A stretch of 64,000 nucleotides of DNA, taken from assembly GCA_043803685.1 (NCBI GenBank), contig JAZDJU010000031.1, positions 85,301 through 149,300 of the forward strand, written 5' to 3'. Source of the stretch: Candidatus Omnitrophota bacterium. Lineage in GTDB: Bacteria > Omnitrophota > Omnitrophia > Omnitrophales > Aquincolibacteriaceae. Of the stretch, positions 32,255-52,334 are shown in pieces. The notes beneath the pieces are model-generated. The model saw nothing but the letters and a program-made list of their open reading frames with translations. It made no database searches and had not been told where the DNA came from. The first letter of the stretch is position 1. The number at the start of each line of letters is the position of its first letter. The translations under genes and the position numbers were made by a program.

Positions 32255-35200
32255 CTAGAAAAGCGAAAATCCGTAAAGCTTCATATCGAGAGAGGACGAA
32301 CCGGTCCCTTCCGTAACGAAAACGATCTCATCCACCAGCGGATATCCCGAAAGAATGAGGTCCGTATTGACCGTCTTGACAGCTCCTCCGGTATTTTGCA
32401 GGTTCAGATATTGCGTTTTTACAATGATCAAATTACCAAAACTATCTCTCGCTTTATATTCGATCCTCGCATTGGGCACCGGCGTCAAAGAAGAATAACT
32501 GATCTGGAGCTGGCGAACATTGATGGAAAGATCATTAGTGATCGCCGCGACGCCCATGCCTTGAAAATTGCTGCTCGTAAGATGAAGGGCCCCTGAATCC
32601 CAACTCGCAGCGGCATTGCCTCCGTTCAGGGCAAACGTGGCGATCGGCCCTTTCAAGAGATCCGTCCCAAGGACATGATTGACGGAGAAATTCACGACCG
32701 TTCGATTTCCCGCCAGATCAGATTCTTCGATCGTAAGCGTATTCGCGCCTGTCACGAGATCCGTAAAAGTTTTCTGTTTTAGCGAACCGTCTAGAGTGTA
32801 ATTCACCGTAATAGAAGACGAGGCGATCATCGCCGGAGTCCCGGGATCCAGTACCACGACGGGAGCAACGGTATCCACCGTCACCTGATGGGTCACCGTG
32901 GTTGAATTCCCGGCCAGATCCTTCTCCGTAATGGATAACGTATTCGATCCTTCCGGAAGATCTGTAAAAAGTTTCGTCTTCGAAACTCCATCCACCGTGT
33001 AACTCACTGTCAGCGTCTTCGCCTTGATCAGGCCCGGGATCCCAGCATCCAGCACCACCACGGGGGGCGTGAAATCATTCTTGGGGATCTGTCTCATTTC
33101 ACCCCCAGTACTGATCACCCCCATCATATCGCCGTAGGCGTACCACAGTTCGACCTCATCCGATCCATTGAGACTCATCCCGCTCAGGATGTTCCCTTCA
33201 TAAAGACGAACCACTTCCCTTCCCGGGCGGAGATAATTCATTTCCGTGAACCATTCATTGATTGGACCGCTACCCGTCATTTTATAATACGCGTGAAACC
33301 CAATAGCGAGATTTCCGCCACGCGTGTAAATGAGATGGTATACGGGGGCTACCGGCATGGAAAGCAACTGCAGATCCGCCACATTCACCTGCGGCGCGTA
33401 CTGCAGCAATAATGCCTCCAGATCCCCTCCCGTGTACTCCACGCCCACTTCCACTCCCGCAGGCGGCACAAAGCGGGCGGCGGGCACGAGCGTCATGCTG
33501 GTGATCTTGTCGTTCGGATATCCCTGCGCGTCCGGGAACAGAACCACGGCATCGGTAATGTACCAGTAAAGATAGCTTTCGGGGATCGTGATCACGTACT
33601 CGCCGGGACCGGACTCCGTCGCCGGAAGGTCAAATTGAACACTGTAGGCCGGATCATTGCTCCCCGCGTGCTTCAGCTCAAGCTTCACGCCCGTGACCGG
33701 CGTTGAAGACTGATAGGTGATACGCAATTCGCGGTCGGAGGCCCGGACAGCTTCAGGAAGGTGCCAGGCGGTCCCTTTGAACCCGTTCCATTCGAAATTA
33801 CCGCTCGTCCCGCTCGTGAGCGAGACCGGTGTCTGCGGATCCCAGATCGACTCGAGTTTCGATGTCAGCCCTTTATTTTCGAGATACCGGGTCATGGAAG
33901 CTCCTCCGGTCCCGGCCATCCCGAGCGTAAACGAAACCACGTTGTTGAATACCTGCTCTTTGACCACTTTGCCCGAACTCATGTTGATACCTTCCCAGAG
34001 ACCGTGGCTTGTAATGAGCTCCGGATGCTCATTGATCAATCGCTGCAATAAGGCTTCGACCCCCTCAGGACGGAACATGTACGCCGCCCCCAGGTTGTAT
34101 GTCGAAGGCGTGGTCTCCGAGACCCCGTTCATGGCGATCTCGTTAATGCCAAGCGAAAAGTTATATTGAATGCGGTCCGTATCGATGCTGTAGAACGTGA
34201 GGTCAAGCGGCCCGCTACCTTCGGAAGTCACGAAAACCACTTCGCTCAGATCGCCCAATACGCCGCTCTCGGGCAACTGAAGCGAAAGCGTGCGCACTTC
34301 CCCTCCTGTATTTTCCAGCGTCAGGTCCTGCACATACACGGTCGTCAGCACACCATCGATCTTCTGTTTGAATTCCAGCCTCGCGTTCGGCACCGCCGTC
34401 TGAGAAGAATACCGGATCTGCAACGCCGACCCTTCGAGCACGTACTTGCTGTTGTCGGTAAAAGCAACGCCGATTCCATTCGTGCTTCCGGCCGTCAGGT
34501 GAAAACTGCCGTCAGCCCCATAGCTCGGATTCACTACGTCCCCCTGCCAGCTGAATGCACTGACAGAGCCGCTCAAAAGATCATAAGAACCCACGTCATA
34601 GCTCGCCGACAAAAGCCCCGGCTGGTTGTTACGCTGAGCGTAATCGAGTTGCACGTCCGTGTAGGTCTCGAGCATCGCACGCAGATCCGGATCATCCGCT
34701 TCCGGCAACAAGAGCGCCGGCCAGTACATCTGGAAAGCACCGCTGAAAGGCTCAACAACGGTTCGGGTACTGCCGTCCTGCATCGCGTAGTCGCTGACCG
34801 AGAAATAAAGCTTATTGTAAACACTCGCCGGAAACGCGTCGCCGTACTGCAAGATGAGGAAGAGGAGCGGACCCATACTTTCCGCTCCAAAAAGATCGAC
34901 CGTCCCTTCCAGGTGACCATCCGAGATCACCATCGTCCGGGCGAACGTCTGGTTCGCGGCGTTATACATGGCCACGTAGCCTGGCCGCTGGTTCTCAATG
35001 AAAGCGTCGATCTTGTCCAGAATGCCGCCGGAAGCGTGGACCGTCGCGTTGCCCGAAAGCGACGCGTCCAGGAGCGCGCCGTAAGCGACCGCAAGTCCCG
35101 CCGTCATGTTCGTGTTGTCCTCGAAACTGACCTGGCGGCCGTAAAGATCGTCCATCCTTTCCCAGTCACCGTTGTAATAGCCGAGCCAGGGCAATAATCC

Positions 35201-38200
35201 CTGGTAGCCCAGCCTCTGTTGATCTTCGAGCAGATGGGTCATCATCACATCAAGCCGGCGGATCGCTTCCGCTTTTGAGATGGTAGAGGTCACAAGATCT
35301 CCCGCGGCGATCGTGGCGAGCAGATTCGCGTAAAACCCGAAGTTGGAGGGCTGAGTGATGCGGCGCTGGAGCCACCCCTCGAGCGGATATTCATGAGTCG
35401 ATTCGACAAGGCCAAAATCGGTCTCTAAATAAAGCATGTTGATCTGCGTCAAAAGGTCGGCAGCGGTCGTGATCTCCCTGGGAATGGCCCGGTAAACAAC
35501 AGCCCCGCGATCCTGCGCCGGATCTTGCCAAGCAACCTCCCCGTAATGAGCGGCCACAAAAGTTCCCGCGGTCTGCCAAACGCCTGAGCCATCGTCAAAC
35601 TGAACCTCGTAACGGACTCCGCGCATCGCCTGATCGATCTTAAGCGACCACTGGTTCGCGGCGCTCGGGACCTGCGTGATCACGGGTTCGACGAACCGGA
35701 TCGCGGGCAGTTCCGGCAGGATCTCAAGCGTATTAAGATCAAAGCGAACGGTACGGATCGAACCGTCATCTTCACGGACTGTGTAAGTCGCGATATTGTT
35801 CTGATACGTAACCGAAGTGGCAGCTCCATCGAACGTGATGTTCTGGTTTACGAGGAATGTTTTATTGAACGTTAGCGAATCAAGACCGAGCGCGAGGACT
35901 GTCTGGCCTCCCGGCGCAACAACCGCATCGACCAGTGTAAAAGTCCCGCCCGCCGCACCCGGCGTTTCATTCCCGAGACTTACGGTCCGAACGGCAGACG
36001 AATAATCGTTCCCTCCATACAAGCTATAGATATGGGCGTAGTACTGGCCCGAGGTCTGGTCATATTCCGGCTGAACCGCGAGGGACAGCACGTCGTTGCG
36101 ATAAAACCCGGTTCCGGGAGTCACGAGCGTTAAATAGAAACTCGAAATAAATTCCGGGTTGAACGTGCTGATGCGGATCCCTGTGGAGGTGCGGATCACC
36201 GTGCCGCTGGGATAGGTCCAGTCCGTTTTGAGCATGACGTAATTGCTGTAATAGAGGATCTGCGTCAGATCGCCTGCGACAGTCTGGGCCGTCCAGGGCT
36301 CACCGATCCGTTCCACGCGCGCCGTCCCTCCGCCTTCGTAGATCACTTTGCTACCATCCGGCGTCACGTCAAAGGTATCGGGAACGTCTCCGGCGCCGGA
36401 ATAAAGAAGCGTGATCCCGCCGCTCGGAATATATTTCAGTTCGAGCCGGGAAATATCGCCGTCCTGTATCACGCGGAAAGCGAAATTCGCGTTAGAGGTC
36501 GCCGGGACCCAAGGCGCCGCGGGAGGAATATCCACGAGGATCGAATCGGTAAAAACCTCTGAGATCAGCCCCGCCTTGTCCATGAGCTGGCAATGCACTT
36601 GCCGCGCACCGTTCCCCTCAGGAAGCGTGAACGACTGCGTTTCGCTGAACGCCGTCCACTCCGACCAGATTGTTCCTTGATCGGTGGAAAAACGGACCTG
36701 ATCGACGCCTGAACCGGCATCGGAACCAGTCAAACTGAAGGTCACTTCCGAAGACGTTGATGTCGAAGCGCCGTCATTGATCGAAAGCGTACCGACGGGC
36801 TTCACCGTATCCAAAAGCACGGTCACAGACGCGGACTCCGACCATTTTCCGGACCTATCCTGGAATTTCACATACATTTTTTTGAGACCATCGCTTGCCG
36901 AAAAGATGACCGGCATGGAAGTGGCGTATGCCTGAGCCGCAGACCAATTGAGCCCATCCCCAGAAAAACTCATCTGGCTCACCCCGGAACCGGCATCCGT
37001 TGCTGACAAATCCATCGTGGCAGCACTTTGCGTAATATACTGGGCACCCCCGTTGATCTTGATCGTTCCGGTGGGCGGCAGCGTGTCCAGAATGATGGAC
37101 TTCGAATAAACCGCACTGGCGTTCCCGGCCTTGTCGTAATACTTCACAAAAACTTGCTTAGCCCCGTCCCCGTCCGTCAGAGTGAACGTCTTGGATGTTG
37201 CGTAAGCAACGGGCGTTGCCCAGTTCGTTCCATCTATCGAAAAACTCATCTTGCTTATGCCGCTCCGGCTGTCCGTCCCGGAGAGATTGAGCGTCACCGT
37301 CTGCGAAGAGGCATACACGGCACCCGAATTGATATTGAGCGAACCCGTCGGCGCTACCGTGTCCAAAGTCACGGTCACGGATGTCACCGCGGACCACCTG
37401 CCGACCTTGTCCTGGAATTTCACATACACTTTCTTCGCTCCATCGCCGGTCGCAAACGTCCACGCTTTTTGCGCCGCATAACTCTCCGCCGTAGTCCACG
37501 TCGTTCCGTTCGACGAAAAACTCATTTTACTTAGCCCCGAACCCGCGTCGGTTGCGGCAAGGTCCAGCGTCACGGCGGTCTGATTGATGTAGGTAGTCCC
37601 GCCGTTCACCTTGACCGTCCCCGCAGGAGGAAGCGTGTCCAGAATGATGGACTTCGAATAAACGGCGCTCACGTTCCCGGCTTTGTCGTAGTACTTCACA
37701 TAAACGGTCTTGTTGCCATCGCCGGAAGGAAGCGTGAATGTTTTTGAAGTCGCGTAGGCCACGGCCGAACTCCAGGTCGTGCCATTCGTCGAAAAACTCA
37801 TCTTAGAGATCCCGCTTCCGGAATCCGCGCCGGAGAGGTTCAAGGTCACGGCCGTGGAAGTGGCGTAAAGAGCCCCTGAGTTAATATTGACCGCGCCTGT
37901 CGGAGGCGTTGTATCCAGAAGGATCGACCTGGAATACACAGCGCTGGCATTTCCGGCCTTGTCGTAATACTTCACATAAACTTTTTTAGTCCCATCCCCG
38001 TCCGCCAGAGTGAACGACTTGGAAGTCGCGTAAGCGACGGGTGTGGTCCAGTTCGTCCCATCCGTCGAAAAACTCATCGTGTTTATGCCACTCCGGCTGT
38101 CCGTCCCGGTAAGATTCAACGTCACCGTCTGCACCGCGGTATAAAGCGCTCCCGAATTGATATTGATCGTTCCGGTCGGCTTGACCGTATCCAAAGTGAC

Positions 38201-39640
38201 GGTGACCGATGCGGCAGAAGACCACCTGCCGACCTTATCCTGGAATTTCACATACACTTTCTTCGCTCCGTCGCCGATCGCGAACGTCCACGCTTTTGTT
38301 GCGGCGTAGTTCTCCGCCGTGGTCCATGTCGTTCCGTTCGTCGAAAAGCTCATTTGGCTGAGTCCCGAGCCCGCATCGGTAGCCGAGAGAGTCAGTGTCG
38401 TGGCAGTCTGATTAATGTAGGAGGCCCCACCATTCACCTTGACCGTCCCCACAGGCGGAAGCGTGTCCAGCATGATCGAACTCGAGAACGGTTCGCTCTC
38501 ATTCCCGGCTTTATCGTAATACTTTACGTAAACGGTCTTGCTGCCATCGCCGGAAGGAAGCGAGTAAGTTTTTGAGGTCGCGTAGGCCACGGGCGCACTC
38601 CAGGTCGTACCGTTCGTCGAAAAACTCATGCTGCCGATCTCACTCCCGCTGGCTGTTGCCGAAAGATTCAAGAGAACGATTTGTGACGTCGTGTAAACAG
38701 CGCCCGAGTTGATAGTGATCGTTCCGGTCACAGGAGGGATCAGTTCGTCGTAGGTGATCTTCAGTCTTGCGTTGGCGAGTTGGATCTTGGGTATCGCGCC
38801 GTCCGGCGCGGCAGAAAAACCCGTCCAGGTTTTTCCGGAACGAAGATCACTAAGAACGGCTTGTGTGACGTCCGCAGAGATCGTCTGTGAAACGTTCCTT
38901 GCGAATGACTTTTGAGTCATGCTTGCCGCTAGGGTGGAGACCCCGGTGTAATGCTTCGCGGCTCCGCCGGACAAGGTGGGATAAAGCCCGTCTTCGTTCG
39001 CTTGCATATCATAGATCGAAAAGTTATAAGCCCCTGTCGTAGTCGAAACAGCGTCAAAAACGAGCTCGACCTTCCGGATCTTCTCGATATCGGCCCCCGC
39101 CGCGGACCATTCAACAAGGCTGACTTCCATGAATGCCCGGTAGTTGGACAGATCATAGACGGGTCCGGTTCTCTGAATGAATGCCCCATCCCGGTAATAA
39201 TAACTGGTGTAATAGACCGGATTCCCGTAGGAATCAGGGTAATAATGCCCACTCAGAGCCTGAACCGTTTTCGAACTCACCGCTCGGAGCTCCAGGGATA
39301 CCTCCCGGAAAAGTGGCGCTAGCTCACTCATCGTAGCTGCGGGAGCCTGGATGCTGGGGGGTACGGCACTATCTTTCGAAAGACCACTGGCCGCTGATAA
39401 GGGGAAACTTGACTGAACCGCTACTCCCGAAGGAATATCATTCTCTAAAACTGGAGGAACCTGCGCATTCGCCTGCTCCAGCGTCATGGCCGGCACGAAT
39501 TGCTGCGTTTCGTTCAGGACCCATTCACTGCCGGCCGCGAAGGAAACAGGCACAGAGATCCCGCTGAAAATAAAGCAAAGGGTTGTCGAAAGCGCGACAA
39601 GCTTGAAAGAGGATCGCTTCACTGGGAAGGAATGCTTCAC
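32255..39640 (-). CDS. giant secreted protein: 8 Ig-like repeats, GH144/glucoamylase-like barrel, 3 CBM-like modules
   Basis: GTG start with GGAGG RBS, signal peptide, DTxPPxG repeats; TQPSNFGFY, GLLPW and FSGAFQMYWPAL motifs. Confidence 0.8.
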   Translation of the reverse strand: MKHSFPVKRSSFKLVALSTTLCFIFSGISVPVSFAAGSEWVLNETQQFVPAMTLEQANAQVPPVLENDIPSGVAVQSSFPLSAASGLSKDSAVPPSIQAPAATMSELAPLFREVSLELRAVSSKTVQALSGHYYPDSYGNPVYYTSYYYRDGAFIQRTGPVYDLSNYRAFMEVSLVEWSAAGADIEKIRKVELVFDAVSTTTGAYNFSIYDMQANEDGLYPTLSGGAAKHYTGVSTLAASMTQKSFARNVSQTISADVTQAVLSDLRSGKTWTGFSAAPDGAIPKIQLANARLKITYDELIPPVTGTITINSGAVYTTSQIVLLNLSATASGSEIGSMSFSTNGTTWSAPVAYATSKTYSLPSGDGSKTVYVKYYDKAGNESEPFSSSIMLDTLPPVGTVKVNGGASYINQTATTLTLSATDAGSGLSQMSFSTNGTTWTTAENYAATKAWTFAIGDGAKKVYVKFQDKVGRWSSAASVTVTLDTVKPTGTININSGALYTAVQTVTLNLTGTDSRSGINTMSFSTDGTNWTTPVAYATSKSFTLADGDGTKKVYVKYYDKAGNASAVYSRSILLDTTPPTGAVNINSGALYATSTAVTLNLSGADSGSGISKMSFSTNGTTWSSAVAYATSKTFTLPSGDGNKTVYVKYYDKAGNVSAVYSKSIILDTLPPAGTVKVNGGTTYINQTAVTLDLAATDAGSGLSKMSFSSNGTTWTTAESYAAQKAWTFATGDGAKKVYVKFQDKVGRWSAVTSVTVTLDTVAPTGSLNINSGAVYASSQTVTLNLSGTDSRSGISKMSFSIDGTNWATPVAYATSKTFTLTDGDGAKQVFVKYYDKAGNASAVYSKSIILDTLPPTGTIKINGGAQYITQSAATMDLSATDAGSGVSQMSFSGDGLNWSAAQAYATSMPVIFSASDGLKKMYVKFQDRSGKWSESASVTVLLDTVKPVGTLSINDGASTSTSSEVTFSLTGSDAGSGVDQVRFSTDQGTIWSEWTAFSETQSFTLPEGNGARQVHCQLMDKAGLISEVFTDSILVDIPPAAPWVPATSNANFAFRVIQDGDISRLELKYIPSGGITLLYSGAGDVPDTFDVTPDGSKVIYEGGGTARVERIGEPWTAQTVAGDLTQILYYSNYVMLKTDWTYPSGTVIRTSTGIRISTFNPEFISSFYLTLVTPGTGFYRNDVLSLAVQPEYDQTSGQYYAHIYSLYGGNDYSSAVRTVSLGNETPGAAGGTFTLVDAVVAPGGQTVLALGLDSLTFNKTFLVNQNITFDGAATSVTYQNNIATYTVREDDGSIRTVRFDLNTLEILPELPAIRFVEPVITQVPSAANQWSLKIDQAMRGVRYEVQFDDGSGVWQTAGTFVAAHYGEVAWQDPAQDRGAVVYRAIPREITTAADLLTQINMLYLETDFGLVESTHEYPLEGWLQRRITQPSNFGFYANLLATIAAGDLVTSTISKAEAIRRLDVMMTHLLEDQQRLGYQGLLPWLGYYNGDWERMDDLYGRQVSFEDNTNMTAGLAVAYGALLDASLSGNATVHASGGILDKIDAFIENQRPGYVAMYNAANQTFARTMVISDGHLEGTVDLFGAESMGPLLFLILQYGDAFPASVYNKLYFSVSDYAMQDGSTRTVVEPFSGAFQMYWPALLLPEADDPDLRAMLETYTDVQLDYAQRNNQPGLLSASYDVGSYDLLSGSVSAFSWQGDVVNPSYGADGSFHLTAGSTNGIGVAFTDNSKYVLEGSALQIRYSSQTAVPNARLEFKQKIDGVLTTVYVQDLTLENTGGEVRTLSLQLPESGVLGDLSEVVFVTSEGSGPLDLTFYSIDTDRIQYNFSLGINEIAMNGVSETTPSTYNLGAAYMFRPEGVEALLQRLINEHPELITSHGLWEGINMSSGKVVKEQVFNNVVSFTLGMAGTGGASMTRYLENKGLTSKLESIWDPQTPVSLTSGTSGNFEWNGFKGTAWHLPEAVRASDRELRITYQSSTPVTGVKLELKHAGSNDPAYSVQFDLPATESGPGEYVITIPESYLYWYITDAVVLFPDAQGYPNDKITSMTLVPAARFVPPAGVEVGVEYTGGDLEALLLQYAPQVNVADLQLLSMPVAPVYHLIYTRGGNLAIGFHAYYKMTGSGPINEWFTEMNYLRPGREVVRLYEGNILSGMSLNGSDEVELWYAYGDMMGVISTGGEMRQIPKNDFTPPVVVLDAGIPGLIKAKTLTVSYTVDGVSKTKLFTDLPEGSNTLSITEKDLAGNSTTVTHQVTVDTVAPVVVLDPGTPAMIASSSITVNYTLDGSLKQKTFTDLVTGANTLTIEESDLAGNRTVVNFSVNHVLGTDLLKGPIATFALNGGNAAASWDSGALHLTSSNFQGMGVAAITNDLSINVRQLQISYSSLTPVPNARIEYKARDSFGNLIIVKTQYLNLQNTGGAVKTVNTDLILSGYPLVDEIVFVTEGTGSSSLDMKLYGFSLF
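36531..38740 (-). repeat. eight tandem ~93-aa Ig-like coding repeats of two subtypes (A-B-A-A-B-A-B-A')
   Basis: Type A: INSG...YYDKAGN. Type B: VNGG...FQDKVGRW. Confidence 0.9.
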
Positions 39641-40511: not shown

Positions 40512-41411
40512 ATGAAGCAACGCAGGATCTTTAGGCTCGTACTTTCAACATTGCTTTTGATAGGTGGGCTTGGGCTTTCGCTTGTCCTTGCGCAGGCGGG
40601 TCCTGATCAGAGCATTGAGAGGGTCAAAACAGCGACTTCTGCTGACGGCACAGCGATCCATTATTACGAGCATGGGCAAGAGGGGCCGACACTTGTGTTT
40701 GTTCACGGATGGATTTGTGACGCAAGCTACTGGAGAGAGCAAGTCGAGTATTTCAAGAAGAAGTATCACATGGTTCTGATCGATCTGGCTGGGCATGGTC
40801 GTTCCGGGAGTGAGCGTGAGAATTACACCATGGAAACCTTTGGCCAGGATGTGAAAGCTGTTGTCGAAAGTGTCGGGGCAAAGAAGGTAGTCTTGATCGG
40901 TCATTCCATGGGTGCCCTTGTGATCGCACAGGCGGCTCTCTTGATGCCAGAGAAGGCGATGGGATTGGTCGCGGTGGATGACCTTCAGAACGTAGAGTAT
41001 CCCCTGGGAGAAACACAGTTCAAGGAGATGACCACGCCCTTCAAAAAAGATTTCAAACAGGGCGTCAGAGATTTCGTCACAGATATGCTGCGTTCTGACA
41101 ACTCGCCTGTCAATGAATGGGTGATCTCGGATATGTCTTTGGCTGATCCCAAGGTTGCGCTCAACGCAATGAACGGATCTTTAGGCGGGTATCTGACAGG
41201 TGATGTAGCCAAGTTGTTTGATGGATTGGATGTTCCGGTGGTGGCTGTGAATAGCGACCTTTGGCCAACCGATGTCGAAGCGAACAGACGGCATATAAAA
41301 GATTTTGAGCTGATCGAGTTGGACGGACTGGATCATTTTCTGATGCTTAAAGCGCCTGAGCGTTTTAACCCTGCGCTTGAACAAGCTGTTAAAATGATAC
41401 TTAAGAAATAA
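40512..41411 (+). CDS. secreted alpha/beta hydrolase
   Basis: Signal peptide, VHGW, DLAGHG, GHSMG nucleophile, DHF His. Confidence 0.9.
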   Translation: MKQRRIFRLVLSTLLLIGGLGLSLVLAQAGPDQSIERVKTATSADGTAIHYYEHGQEGPTLVFVHGWICDASYWREQVEYFKKKYHMVLIDLAGHGRSGSERENYTMETFGQDVKAVVESVGAKKVVLIGHSMGALVIAQAALLMPEKAMGLVAVDDLQNVEYPLGETQFKEMTTPFKKDFKQGVRDFVTDMLRSDNSPVNEWVISDMSLADPKVALNAMNGSLGGYLTGDVAKLFDGLDVPVVAVNSDLWPTDVEANRRHIKDFELIELDGLDHFLMLKAPERFNPALEQAVKMILKK

Positions 41412-41474
41412 ACAAAACGGGACGTCCGGCGGGAGACGTTAGGGTTTAGCTCCTCCCCGCAAGCTGCAGCCAGC

Positions 41475-41726
41475 TTACAAATGGAATTGGCTTTTTTTGC
41501 GCTCGAGGGTACGCTGGAATTTGTCTTCGACGTCCTGGATCGAATCCTTCAACGCTGCGAAGATCTTCGCCACCTGGTCGCCATTATAAGAATACTGGGA
41601 GGTCGCCAGATTCCCGATCAGGCGGATCTTATCGAGCGTCGCCGCGACTCTCTGCTCCGCCAACCGCTTGAACCGCGCTTCCTTGGATTCATTAGGTACG
41701 TTGCTTGCGTCTTCATTTTCTTCCAC
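41475..41726 (-). CDS. small alpha-helical hypothetical protein
   Basis: 83 aa, AAAGGAG RBS. The 'RFKRLAE.RV...IRLIGNL...YSY..DQV.KIF' pattern is recalled from mobile-element hypotheticals. Confidence 0.75.
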   Translation of the reverse strand: MEENEDASNVPNESKEARFKRLAEQRVAATLDKIRLIGNLATSQYSYNGDQVAKIFAALKDSIQDVEDKFQRTLERKKSQFHL

Positions 41727-41799
41727 GTGAGTCTCCTTTATGGATCCGCTTCTTAGCCGGGACCGCTGTAAAATATCACACCCGATCGTGCCCTGAAAA

Positions 41800-42107
41800 C
41801 AGAAAAGGCTTAGCGATGGGGTCAGGAAGCTTGGGCCTCACTACTTGCCAAGCGCATCAACCCAAAGCTAAGCCTACCGCTGAGACCGCTGGAAGGGCGC
41901 TCGCTTCCTCACCCCCGGCCCTGAGGACCGTGGCCAGTCGCGCGTACTTTCTGGCGTCAGCGATCTCAAAAAACGTAAGCCCAAGATCGGCGCCCCGCTT
42001 TGATCGCGGTCAAGCCAGCCGTAACTCAGGCTCCGTACGACGCCAAGAGGGTCCCGGTTCCGTCGGGGGTTCATCGCCCCCAAGCCAGATCCACCATCTC
42101 TTGGCCT
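41800..42107 (-). ncRNA. candidate ~305-nt structured RNA / attenuator (unassigned)
   Basis: Upstream promoter, multiple nested stems with G-U pairs specific to the minus strand, terminal hairpin followed by a U-tract. Confidence 0.5.
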
Positions 42108-42113
42108 GATCTG

Positions 42114-42142
42114 ACTGTAGCCGACGAGTGTTCAAAAAGCAA
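42114..42142 (-). promoter_or_regulatory. sigma70-like promoter
   Basis: TTGCTT-N17-TACAGT on the minus strand. Confidence 0.5.
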
Positions 42143-42171
42143 GACCCCCGCGAAAAATAGGTGAAATATTT

Positions 42172-43089
42172 TCAGCAACAACAGGTGTTTGGTGGACGAT
42201 CGACAAAGGAGATCCCGGCAAAACGCCGGCGAATGCCGCGCTCAAAAGTCCCGGCCGCGTGTCCGAAAATAATCGCCAAACCATGCCGCATGCCCGGCGC
42301 GATCTTGTATCTTTCCCTGAACTCCCGACTCGTATGAGCCAGCATGGGAACCACCGTTCCGATCATACACGAACCAAGACCCAGGCTTTCCGCAGCGATC
42401 ATGGCATAAGTACACGCGATCCCGGCGTCGGCCGGATCTTCGGAACACGCAAAGATCATCGCGAGCGGCGCATCGTAAAACATGAGGTCCTTCCCCTGTG
42501 CTCGACCGTGGGTGAGTTCCTTATAGATCGGCACGACCAACTCACGCATACTGCGGTGCTCTTCTTTCGACATAAAAGGACGCAGCAGCCAGACACCGGC
42601 TTTCGAGAATAACCATGACATTTTCCTCACAGCGTCCAGGAAATCGAAAGCAAAGGAACGGACCGCTTCCTTGCCGTCGAGAACAACGACCTTCACAGTC
42701 GAGGGCGGAAGACCCGCAGGGGCCTGCTGTGCGGCTTCAAGGATCTTTTCCGTGATGTCACGCGAAACCGGTTGATCCGAAAACTTACGAACGCTCCGCC
42801 GTGATACCAAAAGGCGGAACAAGGCGTCATAGGTCGGGGGTTTCTCCTTGGAAAAGCGGAGTACATCCTGCCGTCCGATCCCCTCCGCTTCCACATGAAT
42901 GGCTTCCACAGGACAAATGGCCGCGCAATGACCACACGTGAGACATCCCCAGGAATCTTTCTTCCCGCCCCTCACCTTAACCGATTCCAATTCAAGATAG
43001 GCGGTGGGACAGCCTTCCACACACAACCCGCAAAGATTACATTGATCATTGACGATGATCTCTACTTTTTTTCCGTAAATCGTCGGCAT
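42172..43089 (-). CDS. nitroreductase with N-terminal 2x[4Fe-4S] domain
   Basis: CNLCGLC...CP, CLTCGHC...CP, RRSVRKF, AESLGLGSC. Confidence 0.9.
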   Translation of the reverse strand: MPTIYGKKVEIIVNDQCNLCGLCVEGCPTAYLELESVKVRGGKKDSWGCLTCGHCAAICPVEAIHVEAEGIGRQDVLRFSKEKPPTYDALFRLLVSRRSVRKFSDQPVSRDITEKILEAAQQAPAGLPPSTVKVVVLDGKEAVRSFAFDFLDAVRKMSWLFSKAGVWLLRPFMSKEEHRSMRELVVPIYKELTHGRAQGKDLMFYDAPLAMIFACSEDPADAGIACTYAMIAAESLGLGSCMIGTVVPMLAHTSREFRERYKIAPGMRHGLAIIFGHAAGTFERGIRRRFAGISFVDRPPNTCCC

Positions 43090-47810: not shown

Positions 47811-50800
47811 TTAGTTAAAGACCTCTTCTGTCATTTCTACGGATTCTGAATTTTTCATCTGGCGTTCTTTCATCTTGGCCAAGGCCTTCTTGTAGTCCAT
47901 CGGCATGACCTTCACGAAACGCGGGAGCATCTCTTCCCAACTCGCGAGGATCGTCTTGGCCTGCTGACTGCCCGTGAACTTCACGTGGCGCTCGATCGCG
48001 GTCTTGAGGAATTCCCGGTCGGACTTCTCCGTCACGGGCTCGAGGTCCACCATCTCGAGGTTACAACGCGTATCAAAAAGTTCATTCTCGTCAAGCACAT
48101 AGGCGATCCAGCCGCTCATGCCCGCTGCAAAATTCACGCCGGTCTGGCCCAGGATCACCACGCGGCCTCCGGTCATGTATTCGCAGCCGTGGTCCCCCAC
48201 GCCTTCGACCACCGCGATCGCGCCACTGTTACGGACGCAGAACCTCACGCCCGCGCGGCCGTGGATGTAAGCCTCGCCACTTGTGGCGCCAAACAGGTTC
48301 ACGTTCCCGGTGATGATGTTGTCCTGCGGACGGAATGTTGCGGCCTTGGGCGGATACACGATCAACCGTCCTCCCGAAAGCCCCTTCCCGAAATAGTCGT
48401 TCGCATCGCCTTCGAGTTCGAAGGTCACGCCACGTGCGAGAAATGCGCCGAAACTCTGACCGGCCGATCCCTCGAACTTGATCTTGATCGTGTCTTCCGC
48501 AAGACCTTTCTGGCCGTAGCGTCTCGAGATCTCGTAGCTTAAGGTCGTCCCGACCGTGCGGTTGCAGTTCTTGATCTTCTGCGTGATCACCACAGGTTTC
48601 TGGGATTCGAGCGCGGGCTGGGCCTTCTTGATGAGCTCCTCATCGAGCGAAAGTGAAAAATCGTGGACCTGCTTCGTCACGCAACGGATCGATCCGCCGC
48701 GAGGCGCTTCGATCACGGCGAGGACTTTCGAGAAATCGAGGCCCTGCGCCTTGTAATGGTCGACCGCTTCGAGAACCTCGAGCTTGTCCACACGCCCGAC
48801 CATCTCCTCGAACTTTTTGAAACCGAGCTCCGCCATGAGTTCGCGCACTTCCTGCGCGATGAACTTCATGAAATTCATGATGTGTTCCGGTTTCCCTGTA
48901 AAACGTTTGCGGAGTTCCGGGTTCTGCGTCGCGATGCCCACGGGACAGGTGTTCAGATGGCACTTGCGCATGATAATGCAGCCCATCGTCACGAGACTCG
49001 TCGTCCCGAAACCGAATTCCTCGGCGCCGAGCAGCGCGCCGATCACCACGTCGCGGCCGGTCTTGATCTGGCCGTCCACCTGGACGCGGATCCGGTCGCG
49101 GAGCTTGTTCATGACGAGCACCTGCTGGGTCTCGGCGAGGCCGATCTCCCACGGGGACCCCGCATACTTGATCGAAGAAAGAGGTGACGCGCCCGTGCCG
49201 CCATCGTGGCCGCTGATCAGGACCATATCGGCCTTCCCTTTGGCAACACCTGCGGCGACCGTGCCGACGCCCACTTCCGAGACAAGTTTCACGGAAATGC
49301 GCGCTTCGGGGTTCGAGTTCTTGAGATCGAAGATGAGCTGAGCCAAGTCTTCGATCGAATAAATGTCGTGGTGCGGCGGCGGCGAAATAAGCATGACACC
49401 CGCCGTGGAGTGACGCACGCGCGCGATCTGCTCGTCCACTTTATGACCGGGAAGCTGTCCGCCTTCGCCCGGTTTTGCGCCCTGCGCCATCTTGATCTGA
49501 AGTTCGGAGGAATTGGCGAGGTAATGACTCGTCACACCGAAACGCCCTGAAGCGACCTGCTTCACGGAACTCTTGCTGGAATCTCCGTTCGGAAGCGGTT
49601 GGTAACGGGCCGCATCCTCGCCGCCTTCGCCAGAGTTACTGCCGGCACCGAGACGGTTCATGGCAATCGCCATCGTCTCGTGGGCTTCCTTACTGATCGA
49701 ACCGAAGGACATGGCGGAAGTGACGAACCGCTTGACGATGCTGTCCACCGATTCTACTTCTTCAATGGGAATGGACGGCCCTTTCTTCATCTTGAAAAGG
49801 CCACGGAGCGTGCACAGGTTCTTGCTGATGTCGTTCACTTCGGAGGAATACTTCTTGAAAACGCTGTAATCCCCTTCCCGGACCGACTTCTGGAGATTGA
49901 TGACAGCTTGGGGCGAGAAAAGGTGCTTCTCGGAATTCACGCGGTAGTAATAATTGCCGCCAGAATCCAGATCCTCAACACTCGCCTGAGATTCCTGAAA
50001 GGCCGCCTTGAAGCGTTCGAGCGTTTCCCGCTCAACCACTTCGATCCCGATGCCGCGAATGCGCGAGGACGTTCCCGTAAAATAGGCTTCGAGGAACTCG
50101 TCGTTCAATCCCACGGCCTCGAAAATTTGAGCGCCGCGGTAACTGCGGATCGTGGAAATGCCCATCTTGGACATGACCTTGAGAAGTCCTTTTTTGATCG
50201 CGGCGATGTAATTCTCGACCGCGGCTTCGAGCGTCATCGAGGCGGGTAAATGCCCGCGACGCTTGAGGTCGGTCAGGCTTTCGAAAACAAGATACGGATT
50301 GATGGCGTCCACGCCGTAACCCACGAGACACGCGAAATGCTGCACTTCACGCGCTTCGCCGGTCTCGAGAACAATGCCTCCCAAGTGGCGTTTCCCTTTC
50401 CGGATCAGATATTGATGGACCGCGGAACCGGCCAAGAGCGCCGGGATCGGGGCTTTTCCCGGACCGGCATCCCGGTCACTCAGGATCACGAGCGAATTGC
50501 CTTCATCGAGTTTCTGTTCCACAAGCGAGCAGAGCGCATCCACCGCTTTGGCGAGACTGCCCGCGGCGCCCGTAGCGTCAAAAAGCATCGGGACGGTGCA
50601 GACACGGAAGGTGGCCAAGGTTGAGGTTTTCAAACGATCAATGTCATCGTTCGTGAGGACCGGGTGCGAGAGCTTGAGCTGATGGCAATGTTTCGGCGTC
50701 TCGTCCAGGAGATTCCCCTGGCGGCCCACGAAACTCATGAGCGACATCACAAGGTTCTCGCGATACGGATCGATCGGAGGGTTCGTGACCTGCGCGAAAA

Positions 50801-52334
50801 GTTGTCTAAAATAATTGTAAAGAAGCTGGGAGCGCTTTGAAAGGATCGCGAGCGCGGCGTCGTTCCCCATCGACCCGATCGGTTCCTGGGCGTTCTCGGC
50901 CATCGGAAGCAGGATCAGTTTCTCATCCTCGAGCGTGTAGCCGAACATGCGCTGACGGAGCGCGAGCGTTTTCTCGTCCACTTCCACCGGCCCCGGCACC
51001 TGTAACAATCCTTTAAGTTCGATGCGGTTCTCTTCAAGCCATCGGCGGTACGGCTTGCTCCGGGCGATCCCGGACTTGATCTCGTGATCTTTCATCACGC
51101 GCTTCGTCGCCGTGTCCACCAAAAGAATTTTACCAGGCGTGAGCATCCCTTTTTCCTGGACGTCCGAAGGATCGATCTCAACCACACCGGCTTCCGAGGC
51201 CAATACCAGGATCCCGCTTTTCGTGATGGTGTATCGCGCGGGACGAAGACCGTTCCGGTCGAGGATCGCGCCGACCTTCGTTCCGTCCGTGAACGCGACA
51301 GCGGCAGGACCGTCCCACGGTTCCATGATCGCGGAATGATATTCAAAGAAAGCGCGCTTGGCTTCGCTGATATGGTATTTCACGCCGAACGCTTCGGGGA
51401 CCATCATCATGATCGCGTGTTCCATTGAGCGACCGCCCAACGTCAGAAGCTCAAAGGCATTATCAAAGATGCCGGAGTCGCTCAAATCAGGATTGATGAC
51501 TGGCAGAAGTTTCTTGATCTCGGGACCGAAGAGGTCGGTGGAAAGTCTTCCTTCGCGGGCGGCCATCTTGTTGATGTTGCCGCGCAGAGTATTGATCTCG
51601 CCGTTGTGCGCCACAAAATGGAACGGATGCGCCAGGGCCCAGGATGGGAACGTGTTCGTCGAGTAGCGCTGGTGCACGACGGCGATGGCGCTGACGAGGT
51701 CTTCGTCCATCAGGTCGGTGAAGAAATGATCGAACTGGGGCGCCGCGAACATGCCTTTATAGACCATCGTACGCGTGGAAAGGGACGGAATATAGAAATC
51801 CTCGATCGCCCATCCGAGTTTCGCGGCTTCGTTCTCAAGGACTTTCCGGAGGATATAAAGACGGCGTTCCAGGGCCAACCCTTCGAGTCCGTCATAAGAA
51901 ACAAAGACCTGCCAGATGGACGGCATCACGTCCCGCGCCATTTCACCGAGACAATCGGGCGCGATCGGCACTTCACGCCATCCAAGGATCTTGCCGCCTT
52001 CCTTGGCGGTCTGTTCGGCGATCATCTTCCGGGCACGTTCGGCATCCTTCGCCACTTTCGGGAGAAAGAGCATCCCCGCGCCATACTTTCCTTCCGCCGG
52101 CAGCTGGAATTTCAGGACCTTCGCAAAGAACTTGTGCGGTAGTTGAAGCAGCATCCCGGCGCCGTCACCCGTCTTCAGGTCGCCCCCCACCGCGCCGCGA
52201 TGAACAAGGTTCTTCAGGATCTGGACGCCATCACGGACGATCTGGTGGGTCCGGGTTCCGTCGATCTTGACAATAAAGCCGACGCCGCACGCGTCATGTT
52301 CCATGCTAGGGTGATAGAGGCCTTGGGCTTTCAT
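47811..52334 (-). CDS. gltB: glutamate synthase large subunit
   Basis: HDACGVG, HQRYSTNT, QGAKPGEGG, CHLNTCPVG, GXGXG domain. Confidence 0.97.
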   Translation of the reverse strand: MKAQGLYHPSMEHDACGVGFIVKIDGTRTHQIVRDGVQILKNLVHRGAVGGDLKTGDGAGMLLQLPHKFFAKVLKFQLPAEGKYGAGMLFLPKVAKDAERARKMIAEQTAKEGGKILGWREVPIAPDCLGEMARDVMPSIWQVFVSYDGLEGLALERRLYILRKVLENEAAKLGWAIEDFYIPSLSTRTMVYKGMFAAPQFDHFFTDLMDEDLVSAIAVVHQRYSTNTFPSWALAHPFHFVAHNGEINTLRGNINKMAAREGRLSTDLFGPEIKKLLPVINPDLSDSGIFDNAFELLTLGGRSMEHAIMMMVPEAFGVKYHISEAKRAFFEYHSAIMEPWDGPAAVAFTDGTKVGAILDRNGLRPARYTITKSGILVLASEAGVVEIDPSDVQEKGMLTPGKILLVDTATKRVMKDHEIKSGIARSKPYRRWLEENRIELKGLLQVPGPVEVDEKTLALRQRMFGYTLEDEKLILLPMAENAQEPIGSMGNDAALAILSKRSQLLYNYFRQLFAQVTNPPIDPYRENLVMSLMSFVGRQGNLLDETPKHCHQLKLSHPVLTNDDIDRLKTSTLATFRVCTVPMLFDATGAAGSLAKAVDALCSLVEQKLDEGNSLVILSDRDAGPGKAPIPALLAGSAVHQYLIRKGKRHLGGIVLETGEAREVQHFACLVGYGVDAINPYLVFESLTDLKRRGHLPASMTLEAAVENYIAAIKKGLLKVMSKMGISTIRSYRGAQIFEAVGLNDEFLEAYFTGTSSRIRGIGIEVVERETLERFKAAFQESQASVEDLDSGGNYYYRVNSEKHLFSPQAVINLQKSVREGDYSVFKKYSSEVNDISKNLCTLRGLFKMKKGPSIPIEEVESVDSIVKRFVTSAMSFGSISKEAHETMAIAMNRLGAGSNSGEGGEDAARYQPLPNGDSSKSSVKQVASGRFGVTSHYLANSSELQIKMAQGAKPGEGGQLPGHKVDEQIARVRHSTAGVMLISPPPHHDIYSIEDLAQLIFDLKNSNPEARISVKLVSEVGVGTVAAGVAKGKADMVLISGHDGGTGASPLSSIKYAGSPWEIGLAETQQVLVMNKLRDRIRVQVDGQIKTGRDVVIGALLGAEEFGFGTTSLVTMGCIIMRKCHLNTCPVGIATQNPELRKRFTGKPEHIMNFMKFIAQEVRELMAELGFKKFEEMVGRVDKLEVLEAVDHYKAQGLDFSKVLAVIEAPRGGSIRCVTKQVHDFSLSLDEELIKKAQPALESQKPVVITQKIKNCNRTVGTTLSYEISRRYGQKGLAEDTIKIKFEGSAGQSFGAFLARGVTFELEGDANDYFGKGLSGGRLIVYPPKAATFRPQDNIITGNVNLFGATSGEAYIHGRAGVRFCVRNSGAIAVVEGVGDHGCEYMTGGRVVILGQTGVNFAAGMSGWIAYVLDENELFDTRCNLEMVDLEPVTEKSDREFLKTAIERHVKFTGSQQAKTILASWEEMLPRFVKVMPMDYKKALAKMKERQMKNSESVEMTEEVFN

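Follow-up and report, generated by a model that had tools for sequence, protein, structure and literature searches.

A free-standing structured RNA of Omnitrophota built around a compact four-way junction, possibly recognised in trans as a tRNA-like shape

In a window of 64,000 nucleotides (nt) from a Candidatus Omnitrophota genome (contig JAZDJU010000031.1, positions 85,301 to 149,300), minus-strand positions 42107–41796 are an independent noncoding RNA gene of ~310 nt with its own sigma-70-type promoter and intrinsic terminator. We are highly confident that the RNA is real, expressed and free-standing. The conserved functional unit is, we believe with good reason, not the whole RNA but a four-way junction of 86–95 nt locked by a contact between two of its hairpin loops; the parts around it (5′ hairpin, middle domain and long terminator hairpin) are lineage-specific decorations. 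That the RNA acts in trans is likely. Our favoured reading overall, to which we give about an even chance, is that the RNA acts in trans, is tRNA-shaped and is recognised in its folded form, most likely by a protein. The Omnitrophota have not been cultured; they are very small bacteria that probably depend on hosts, and to our knowledge almost nothing has been learned about their RNA biology. Judged from Rfam 15 and full-text literature searches, the RNA family is undescribed.

We number genomes with G and loci or contigs with L. G000 is the genome of the window (assembly of 2.89 Mb, 91% complete); G001, G006, G010, G011 and G019 belong to the same genus, G072 to a sister genus and G137 to another order of the phylum. 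L028, L034, L035, L041 and L046 come from metagenome contigs, and L006 is the G010 locus. In G000, the RNA occupies a spacer of 445 nt between a ferredoxin-nitroreductase gene (42172–43089, minus) and an open reading frame (ORF) of 83 amino acids (aa; 41475–41726, minus), and both a DNA search and a covariance model find one copy in the assembly. The predicted transcript of ~312 nt (41796–42107, minus) is bounded by promoter and terminator, its ends being placed from these signals rather than mapped. Read directly, a −35-like hexamer TTGCTT (42137–42142, minus) within a block, GGYCTTSCTTTTTGA, conserved in the same-genus homologues is followed after 17 nt by a −10-like hexamer TACAGT (42114–42119, minus), at whose position the homologues have TACGGT, TAGGGT or TACAGT. 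A preliminary description of this stretch had proposed the promoter; the hexamers are present and the block is conserved, but a consensus promoter scan called nothing at the RNA locus, for which these hexamers are too weak. The distant forms have stronger promoters right before the core, TTGACA-17-TATGCT in L046 and TGGTATAAT in G137, both ending ~7 nt before the module. At the other end, the U-tract UUUCUGUUUU of the intrinsic terminator (41796–41805, minus) is invariant in the seven full-length homologues, and contigs from RNA libraries stop short of the 83-aa gene. The genes on either side of the RNA differ in all eight carrier genomes, the downstream gene even being convergent in G001, and the promoter block and terminator are conserved along with the RNA, which together make it a free-standing gene. 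Its homologues share no reading frame, each carries 5–13 indels that are not multiples of three, and the majority of all indels are frame-breaking; the RNA is therefore noncoding.

The core module is an 86-nt four-way junction with a loop–loop kiss (41882–41967, minus), matched by its covariance model with 70.1 bits (E 3e-16), and its minimum free energy (MFE) fold has the same four helices (z = −2.58). The module is closed by P1, whose 5′ strand GAGAUCGCUG (41958–41967, minus) pairs with 41882–41891 (CAGCGGUCUC); across 16 modules, 90.5% of its cells are paired and 4 of the 10 pairs change on both sides, and the helix was also found in the full-length helix set. The P2 hairpin (41933–41955, minus; 97.5% paired) consists of GCCAG (41955–51), the loop L2 with AAAGUACGCGCGA (41950–38) and CUGGC (41937–33), the loop being 13 nt long in the window module and beginning with an invariant AAA. 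P3 (41916–41930, minus), here CGGUCC-UCA-GGGCCG, is variable, with length and sequence differing among the modules and all four counted pairs changing on both sides. P4 and its loop L4 (41892–41915, minus) are ambiguous in register in the window genome, GGAAG/CUUCC resembling the family and GGGGUG/CGCCCU being that of the MFE fold; most members have the consensus GAAGGA/UCCUUC. P2 and P4 are short hairpins of equal length. The linkers of the window module are AC between P1 and P2, CAC between P2 and P3, purine-rich between P3 and P4 and none between P4 and P1, with lengths of 2, 3–4, 4–7 and 0 nt across the family, and a U-rich stretch precedes P1 in most copies. Invariant junction and loop bases are few: A and C in J1/2, the AAA of L2 and one C in J2/3.

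The pairing is supported by comparison across the family. In a model-guided alignment of the 16 modules, 91.6% of 453 cells are paired, compared with 32–50% for slid partners; both sides change in 12 of the 30 pairs, and none of 500 shuffles reaches the covariation score. Compensatory versions are seen both in P2 (GUCAG/CUGAC in G137 copy 2; GCUGC/GCUGC in G001) and in P4 (CAAGA/UCUUG in G001), and six divergent modules folded singly give the same four helices with z = −2.6 to −4.1. As an observation on P4, 13 of the 15 intact modules have a helix that resembles a duplex of Shine-Dalgarno and anti-Shine-Dalgarno sequences (GAAGGAGG with CCUUCC; e.g., window 41915–41892; L006 1560–1582); in several modules it is extended to GAAGGAGGUGA, and G001 instead has the pair of strands just given.

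The conserved, covarying pseudoknot of the RNA, different from the one proposed in the preliminary description, joins the loops of P2 and P4 in a kiss. L2 and L4 are complementary over 3–6 Watson–Crick pairs in all 15 intact modules; in the module of the window, L4 contains a GCG that pairs with L2. Across the modules, the pairs interchange among GCCC:GGGC, CGCUU:GAGCG, GUCC:GGGC and CGCUCC:GGGGCG. The contact is absent from the covariance model and is still 93.7% paired in the 16-module alignment. Cognate L2–L4 duplexes have a mean of −6.2 kcal/mol compared with −4.8 for noncognate ones, equalled by 6 of 5000 permutations, a count that is not a true probability as the sequences are related. 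In the tandem RNA, the two modules use different kiss pairs.

A DNA search of 60 relatives gave matches of 69–76% identity in five species of the same genus, with the flanking coding DNA unmatched. A model built on 12 modules then detected members outside its training set, G072 with 82 bits and G137 with 56 and 47 bits, bringing the carriers to G000, five other species of its genus, one species of a sister genus and one distant Omnitrophota genome. Metagenome forms were sought with a pattern scan of contigs followed by nhmmer and covariance-model filtering. The looser scan gave 26 loci, of which 22 were taken to the covariance model and L037, L043, L048 and L051 were left out, with scores equal to those of L022, L041, L021 and L024 in the preceding filter; among the 22, only L028, L034 (twice), L035, L041 and L046 matched, the other 17 being chance. 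Of the five exact-pattern loci in genome contigs, four are known Omnitrophota carriers and the fifth, in a Planctomycetota metagenome-assembled genome (MAG), lies inside an aldo/keto-reductase-like frame and was rejected as chance, as was a match in a coding region of G200 (E 7e-4). A 26-nt blastn match in G026 and matches with E > 0.3 (G000 contig 80, G014 and a second place in G019) were not counted. Phage and plasmid records contain no match to the RNA, and viral contigs gave a single chance match, on the same contig as L042.

The homologues come in several architectures. L041 is a further full-length form. G010 has the central part of the RNA only, twice in tandem, and L034 is a second tandem form, its copy 2 broken off after P3; L035 consists of the module and a terminator hairpin, and L046 is a minimal form of ~105 nt in which the promoter is followed by a clamp stem and U-run enclosing the module. 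G137 carries two tandem genes, each with the TGGTATAAT promoter, the module and a terminator hairpin, so that multivalency occurs both as tandem modules (G010, L034) and as tandem genes (G137). The tandem genes of G137 (L074 9300–10700) lie in a duplicated unit of ~500 bp, whose spacer holds an open frame of 73–92 aa on the opposite strand, without Pfam match, a putative gene.

Seven sequences are full length (G000, G001, G072, G019, G011, G006 and L041), and all retain the 5′ stem, its GGGG/CCCC cap and the terminal hairpin. The 5′ hairpin domain (42042–42105, minus) has an outer stem GCCAAGAG/CUCUUGGC, an inner stem and the GGGG/CCCC tip; it is 94–97% paired and mostly invariant, with two pairs changing on both sides. 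The long terminal hairpin (41806–41875, minus), in which AGGCUUAGC/GCUAAGCCU closes two inner stems, is 93–100% paired, and its U-A to U-G changes fit only the minus strand. Between them, the middle domain (41968–42041, minus) is variable and exists in two unrelated versions, one in G000, G001 and G072 and a longer one in G019, G011, G006 and L041; the version of the window is common only to G001 and G072, where it is a long hairpin tipped by CCGC/GCGG. Over the full length, 92.4% of 551 cells are paired compared with 32–52% with slid partners, the structure having been derived from the same seven sequences; both sides change in 14 of the 80 pairs, and no shuffle out of 500 reaches the score. 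The frequent conserved G-U pairs and the U-A to U-G changes assign the RNA to the minus strand. A single-sequence fold of 321 nt has z = −1.42, with 10 of 100 shuffles as stable, and the plus strand gives z = −1.44; the single sequence is no more stable than chance, and it is the comparative data that are decisive.

Against this structure, the helices of the preliminary description fared unevenly. Every stretch that it quoted lies on the minus strand where it had been placed, including the outer stem GCCAAGAG/CUCUUGGC (42105–98 / 42049–42) with its GGGGG/CCCCC cap and the terminal hairpin AGGCUUAGC/GCUAAGCCU (41875–67 / 41814–06) followed by UUUCUGUUUU, the latter hairpin being kept in the seven full-length homologues; many conserved G-U pairs fit the minus strand alone, in line with its choice of strand. 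CCGC/GCGG is retained in the three homologues that share the middle domain but is invariant there, and the AGCC/GGCU pairing gives way in those three to a better match of AGCC with a distal GGGCUU than with the nearby GGCU. The helix CGAUCUUGGG/UUUGAGAUCG (41989–80 / 41970–61) is present in the letters, unsupported by the homologues and in competition with the P1/P4 helices of the conserved core. The same competition affects the supposed switch or pseudoknot between 41915–03 and 41830–18, whose 12/13 complement exists but is not conserved, being lost in G011 and G006. Taken jointly, the two alternative helices are 72.4% paired in the seven sequences, a value equalled by 78 of 500 shuffles; the shuffles are 71.0% paired.

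Parts of the stretch were found in 20 public sequencing runs from 16 studies, 10 of them RNA libraries (sediment, river, lake, groundwater, peat). The contigs of four RNA runs, from four studies, were compared with 41300–42600 and all fall within 41821–42098, crossing the 5′ edge of P1, and none lies on 41300–41783 or 42136–42600, flanking genes included. The bare flanks argue against carry-over of DNA, but uncovered parts are no finding by themselves. In one run of 328 million letters, the contigs have a word depth of ~40; one of them ends at 42096 in letters that we take to be sequencing adapter, a weak hint of a nearby 5′ end, and others match conserved parts only and then diverge as relatives within the family would. 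The notion of a new structured noncoding RNA, already advanced in the preliminary description, has thus been borne out by covariation, by presence in RNA libraries and by the single copy, which also speaks against a miniature inverted-repeat transposable element; the only flanking inverted repeat is 15 nt long at 87%, and one of its arms is the ribosome-binding site of the 83-aa gene.

The distribution of the RNA is patchy. The module is present in 6 of 20 genomes of the genus, with no intermediate scores, in 7 of 66 of the family, 7 of 96 of the order and 8 of 151 of an even sample of the phylum; in the order of G137, it occurs in 1 of 39 genomes, counting the G200 match as chance. On a 22-row RecA tree (without G002 and G003, which gave no match, and G017, whose match is partial), the carriers need five gains or losses, at least four of them by well-supported branches, and are no more clustered than shuffled labels, 103 of 500 shuffles being as low. 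The carrier G006 and the noncarrier G016 (87% complete) have identical RecA cores. The data suggest a mismatch between this tree and the architecture types of the RNA, although the RecA core is poorly resolved. In G005, which is without the RNA, the G006 locus is matched only as far as the orthologue of the upstream hydrolase gene, after which a different spacer follows, with no clean boundary of gain or loss; this unrelated spacer of ~750 nt (L103 900–1440) has a GC-rich hairpin and U-run of its own and may hold another small RNA at the equivalent place.

None of the known families that we compared contains this RNA. As the preliminary description had expected, no recognised family matches: the 4227 models of Rfam 15 gave no hit at gathering level in the 64-kb window and, at E up to 10 over 41400–42250, only two 14-bit matches (E 0.47 and 4.8; thresholds 40–44). 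On six related loci, Rfam found nothing on the module, and the same run did detect the flanking tRNA in L006 and L034. Among the papers listed in full-text literature searches, none dealt with small or structured RNAs of Omnitrophota. ARAGORN predicted no tRNA or transfer-messenger RNA (tmRNA) gene in 41000–43000. A Y RNA of the Rsr/Ro60 system was rejected, as the TROVE/Rsr domain (PF05731) is absent from all 20 genomes of the genus and the same search was positive in the Deinococcus and Bacteroides controls. RNase P RNA and tmRNA were found elsewhere in G000. The 6S RNA model finds nothing in this genome, of which 91% is represented, and three short motif searches for the RNA of the signal recognition particle (SRP) gave nothing convincing. 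With either bacterial Rfam model, SRP RNA goes undetected in G000, and the small-SRP model matches 1 of 20 genomes of the genus, G008, where the match lies at the end of a contig; possibly, SRP RNA has diverged in this genus beyond the reach of current models. An SRP or 6S RNA would be near-universal in its lineage, and the counts for genus, family and order given above are far from that; the patchy distribution thus speaks against any housekeeping RNA.

Among known systems, the closest in shape are tRNA and the tRNA-like domains of Y RNA/YrlA and tmRNA. The module has the helix order of a cloverleaf, with linkers of 2, 3–4, 4–7 and 0 nt, a four-way junction in which P4 passes into P1 without a linker, and helices 2 and 4 of equal length with touching loops, all judged from secondary structure and loop pairing; an L-shape in which P1 stacks on P4 would result. 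Unlike tRNA, it has no D-loop or T-loop consensus, the contact being a Watson–Crick kiss of 3–6 bp; its P1 is 9–11 bp long, internal to a longer transcript and without a CCA end, and its P3 loop of 3–7 nt is unconserved. With orphan noncoding RNAs such as raiA and OLE-type RNAs, it shares an own promoter and terminator, strong covariation, the lack of coding capacity and abundance in RNA libraries, but no Rfam 15 model matches it, its architecture is modular around one small junction, and its members come to date only from Omnitrophota MAGs and unassigned metagenome contigs. Tandem riboswitches, such as those for glycine, similarly have a compact junction, a tertiary lock and two modules in series, as in G010 and L034; they differ from our RNA in that it has no consistent downstream gene and no competing expression platform, its promoter looking constitutive and its terminator fixed. 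The protein-titrating RNAs CsrB and RsmZ are likewise abundant, free-standing and terminator-ended, with a unit that is repeated in some lineages, but here the units number one or two rather than many, and a single GGA-type run sits in a stem instead of in hairpin loops.

The preliminary description had linked the RNA to the neighbouring 83-aa gene, as a new noncoding RNA or riboswitch-like leader and possibly part of an RNA–protein module. That connection does not survive. Homologues of the 83-aa protein, 78–86% identical, are present in four of five RNA-bearing genomes searched (none was found in G010), three of them on another contig and one 21 kb from the RNA, and no downstream gene is constant. 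When the regions upstream of these homologues were collected, as had been proposed, the RNA was absent, and they share with the window only a ribosome-binding site. The 83-aa ORF is one of a family of small proteins found across Omnitrophota, with 79 clusters, mostly 70–88% identical, without Pfam domain and named “hypothetical.” With the homologues elsewhere, their upstream regions lacking the RNA and the protein family so widespread, the link between the RNA and the 83-aa gene is an accident of one genome. Around the eight loci, we ran Pfam on 66 of the 115 ORFs within 7 kb: genes for an alpha/beta hydrolase, a SIMPL protein, a Cys-rich-repeat protein and an FMN reductase recur loosely near the RNA, not adjacent to it, and in this sample no integrase, transposase, reverse transcriptase or toxin family recurs. 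At L046, a 78-aa ORF convergent with the minimal RNA (96–332, plus) has a weak match to a HicA toxin, below the Pfam cut-off (E 8e-5; 23.1 vs. 27 bits). In G010 and a related contig, a long-arm tRNA gene (L006 628–714; L034 495–581) precedes the tandem RNA by ~600 nt, with genes for a TadA-like deaminase and seryl-tRNA synthetase further upstream in G010 (L072 4205–9094).

Our favoured reading is that a cellular factor, most likely a protein, may read the folded module as a rigid shape, that the RNA would titrate or scaffold this factor, and that the factor may normally read tRNA-like shapes. In such a structure, P1 and P4 would form one arm and the P2–P4 kiss would stand in for the elbow made by the D- and T-loops. 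Recognition in trans as a folded unit is suggested by the fact that P2 and P4 are conserved in sequence while P3 and the periphery vary, by the one- and two-module forms and by the high abundance. The step to a protein is the more tentative part: we favour it over a small ligand, over base pairing and over a role in processing or conflict, while giving it somewhat less than an even chance. A more specific version seems to us rather unlikely, namely a novel class of tRNA-shaped decoys, minimal self-locking L-shaped mimics with a P4 like a Shine-Dalgarno/anti-Shine-Dalgarno duplex that would be highly expressed, titrate or guide a translation or tRNA-processing factor and spread as naked RNA genes between Omnitrophota lineages; the factor may then be RNase P, a modification enzyme, a nuclease or the ribosome.

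Several points weigh against our favoured reading as a whole. The likeness to tRNA is topological only, with both ARAGORN and the Rfam tRNA model finding nothing. No partner gene recurs beside the RNA in the Pfam sample of the eight neighbourhoods, and with the patchy distribution (6 of 20 in the genus, 7 of 96 in the order), a housekeeping partner would lack the RNA in most relatives. P2 and P4 are conserved as sequence and not just as pairing, and their pattern of conservation, together with that of the junction bases, does not discriminate a protein from a small-ligand partner. The family comes from about 10 species plus unassigned contigs, with an effective sequence number of 2.4; kinship inflates the shuffle controls, and the module alignment was fitted to the model for P1–P4. 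Finally, the RNA contigs show neither strand, ends nor level, and some carry-over of DNA is possible.

Among the alternatives, the least improbable, although still unlikely in our view, is an orphan aptamer carried on a trans-acting small RNA, in which a metabolite or ion would fold or refold the junction and alter binding or lifetime. A compact junction with a tertiary loop–loop lock and an invariant AAA speak for it, and the tandem modules in G010 and L034 recall some tandem riboswitches, but only about six unpaired positions are invariant, no downstream gene is constant, no alternative pairing with the terminator is conserved and no Rfam riboswitch model gives even a weak match. We are more doubtful of a base-pairing regulator, whose P4 purine strand GAAGGAGG or its CCUUCC partner would be released toward ribosome-binding sites or the 3′ end of 16S rRNA: although 13 of the 15 intact modules keep an AGGA/GGAG-type run paired to CCUUCC/CCUCCC and the helix is conserved as sequence, both strands are locked in a stable helix inside the junction, and the fold is kept with CAAGA/UCUUG in G001 and with a weakened helix in G137 copy 1. 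The patchy occurrence, the five gains or losses, the identical RecA cores of G006 and G016, the architectures off the RecA tree, the presence in G137 but in none of 38 other genomes of its order (G200 being chance) and the U-rich stretch before P1 in most copies would suit an RNA of a mobile or conflict system or a self-processing RNA, be it a tRNA-like decoy or substrate of RNase P or a nuclease, a ribozyme, or a component of some unrecognised defence or selfish element. We nevertheless hold such a role to be a poor bet, given that the neighbouring ORFs put through Pfam (within 7 kb) include no recurrent integrase, transposase, reverse transcriptase or toxin, that the RNA is single-copy with no match in phage or plasmid records and one chance match in viral contigs, that no Rfam ribozyme matches and that the RNA contigs run across the 5′ edge of P1.

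Two further explanations strike us as very improbable. A cis-acting leader or riboswitch of the 83-aa gene, with a terminator/antiterminator switch and possibly feedback by the protein, would fit the terminator ending 70 nt before this same-strand gene and the 12/13 complement within the RNA; set against this are the homologues located elsewhere in four of five genomes with upstream regions devoid of the RNA, a protein far more widespread (79 clusters), an alternative pairing that does not outperform shuffles and is missing from G011 and G006, downstream genes that differ in 8 of 8 genomes, one of them convergent, and the lack of any RNA contig joining the RNA and the gene. We assign equally little weight to a divergent SRP or 6S RNA missed by the Rfam models. 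Their models do find neither in G000, at 91% completeness, with small-SRP in just 1 of 20 genomes of the genus, and the RNA reaches an abundance that allows its assembly from small RNA libraries, but a housekeeping RNA is expected in all genomes rather than in 6 of 20 and 7 of 96 with no intermediate scores. The structure is neither the rod of 6S nor equipped with an apical hairpin of the SRP type, and RNase P RNA and tmRNA were recovered elsewhere in the same genome.

Beyond the spacer, the region is flanked in the window by ORFs of 2461 aa (32255–39640, minus) and 1507 aa (47811–52331, minus), the former full of repeated units of ~95 aa each.

The analysis removes the tempting link to the neighbouring 83-aa gene, and the strong conservation of that uncharacterised protein deserves a look of its own. 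What is new lies at the level of the RNA family and its architecture. The family is well supported, with a small crystallisable core, natural forms of one and two modules and evidence that it is highly expressed in sediments, rivers and lakes, and it offers a tractable object for structure determination and the search for a partner. If it is true that its tRNA-like shape is read, the RNA would represent a new solution to tRNA mimicry.

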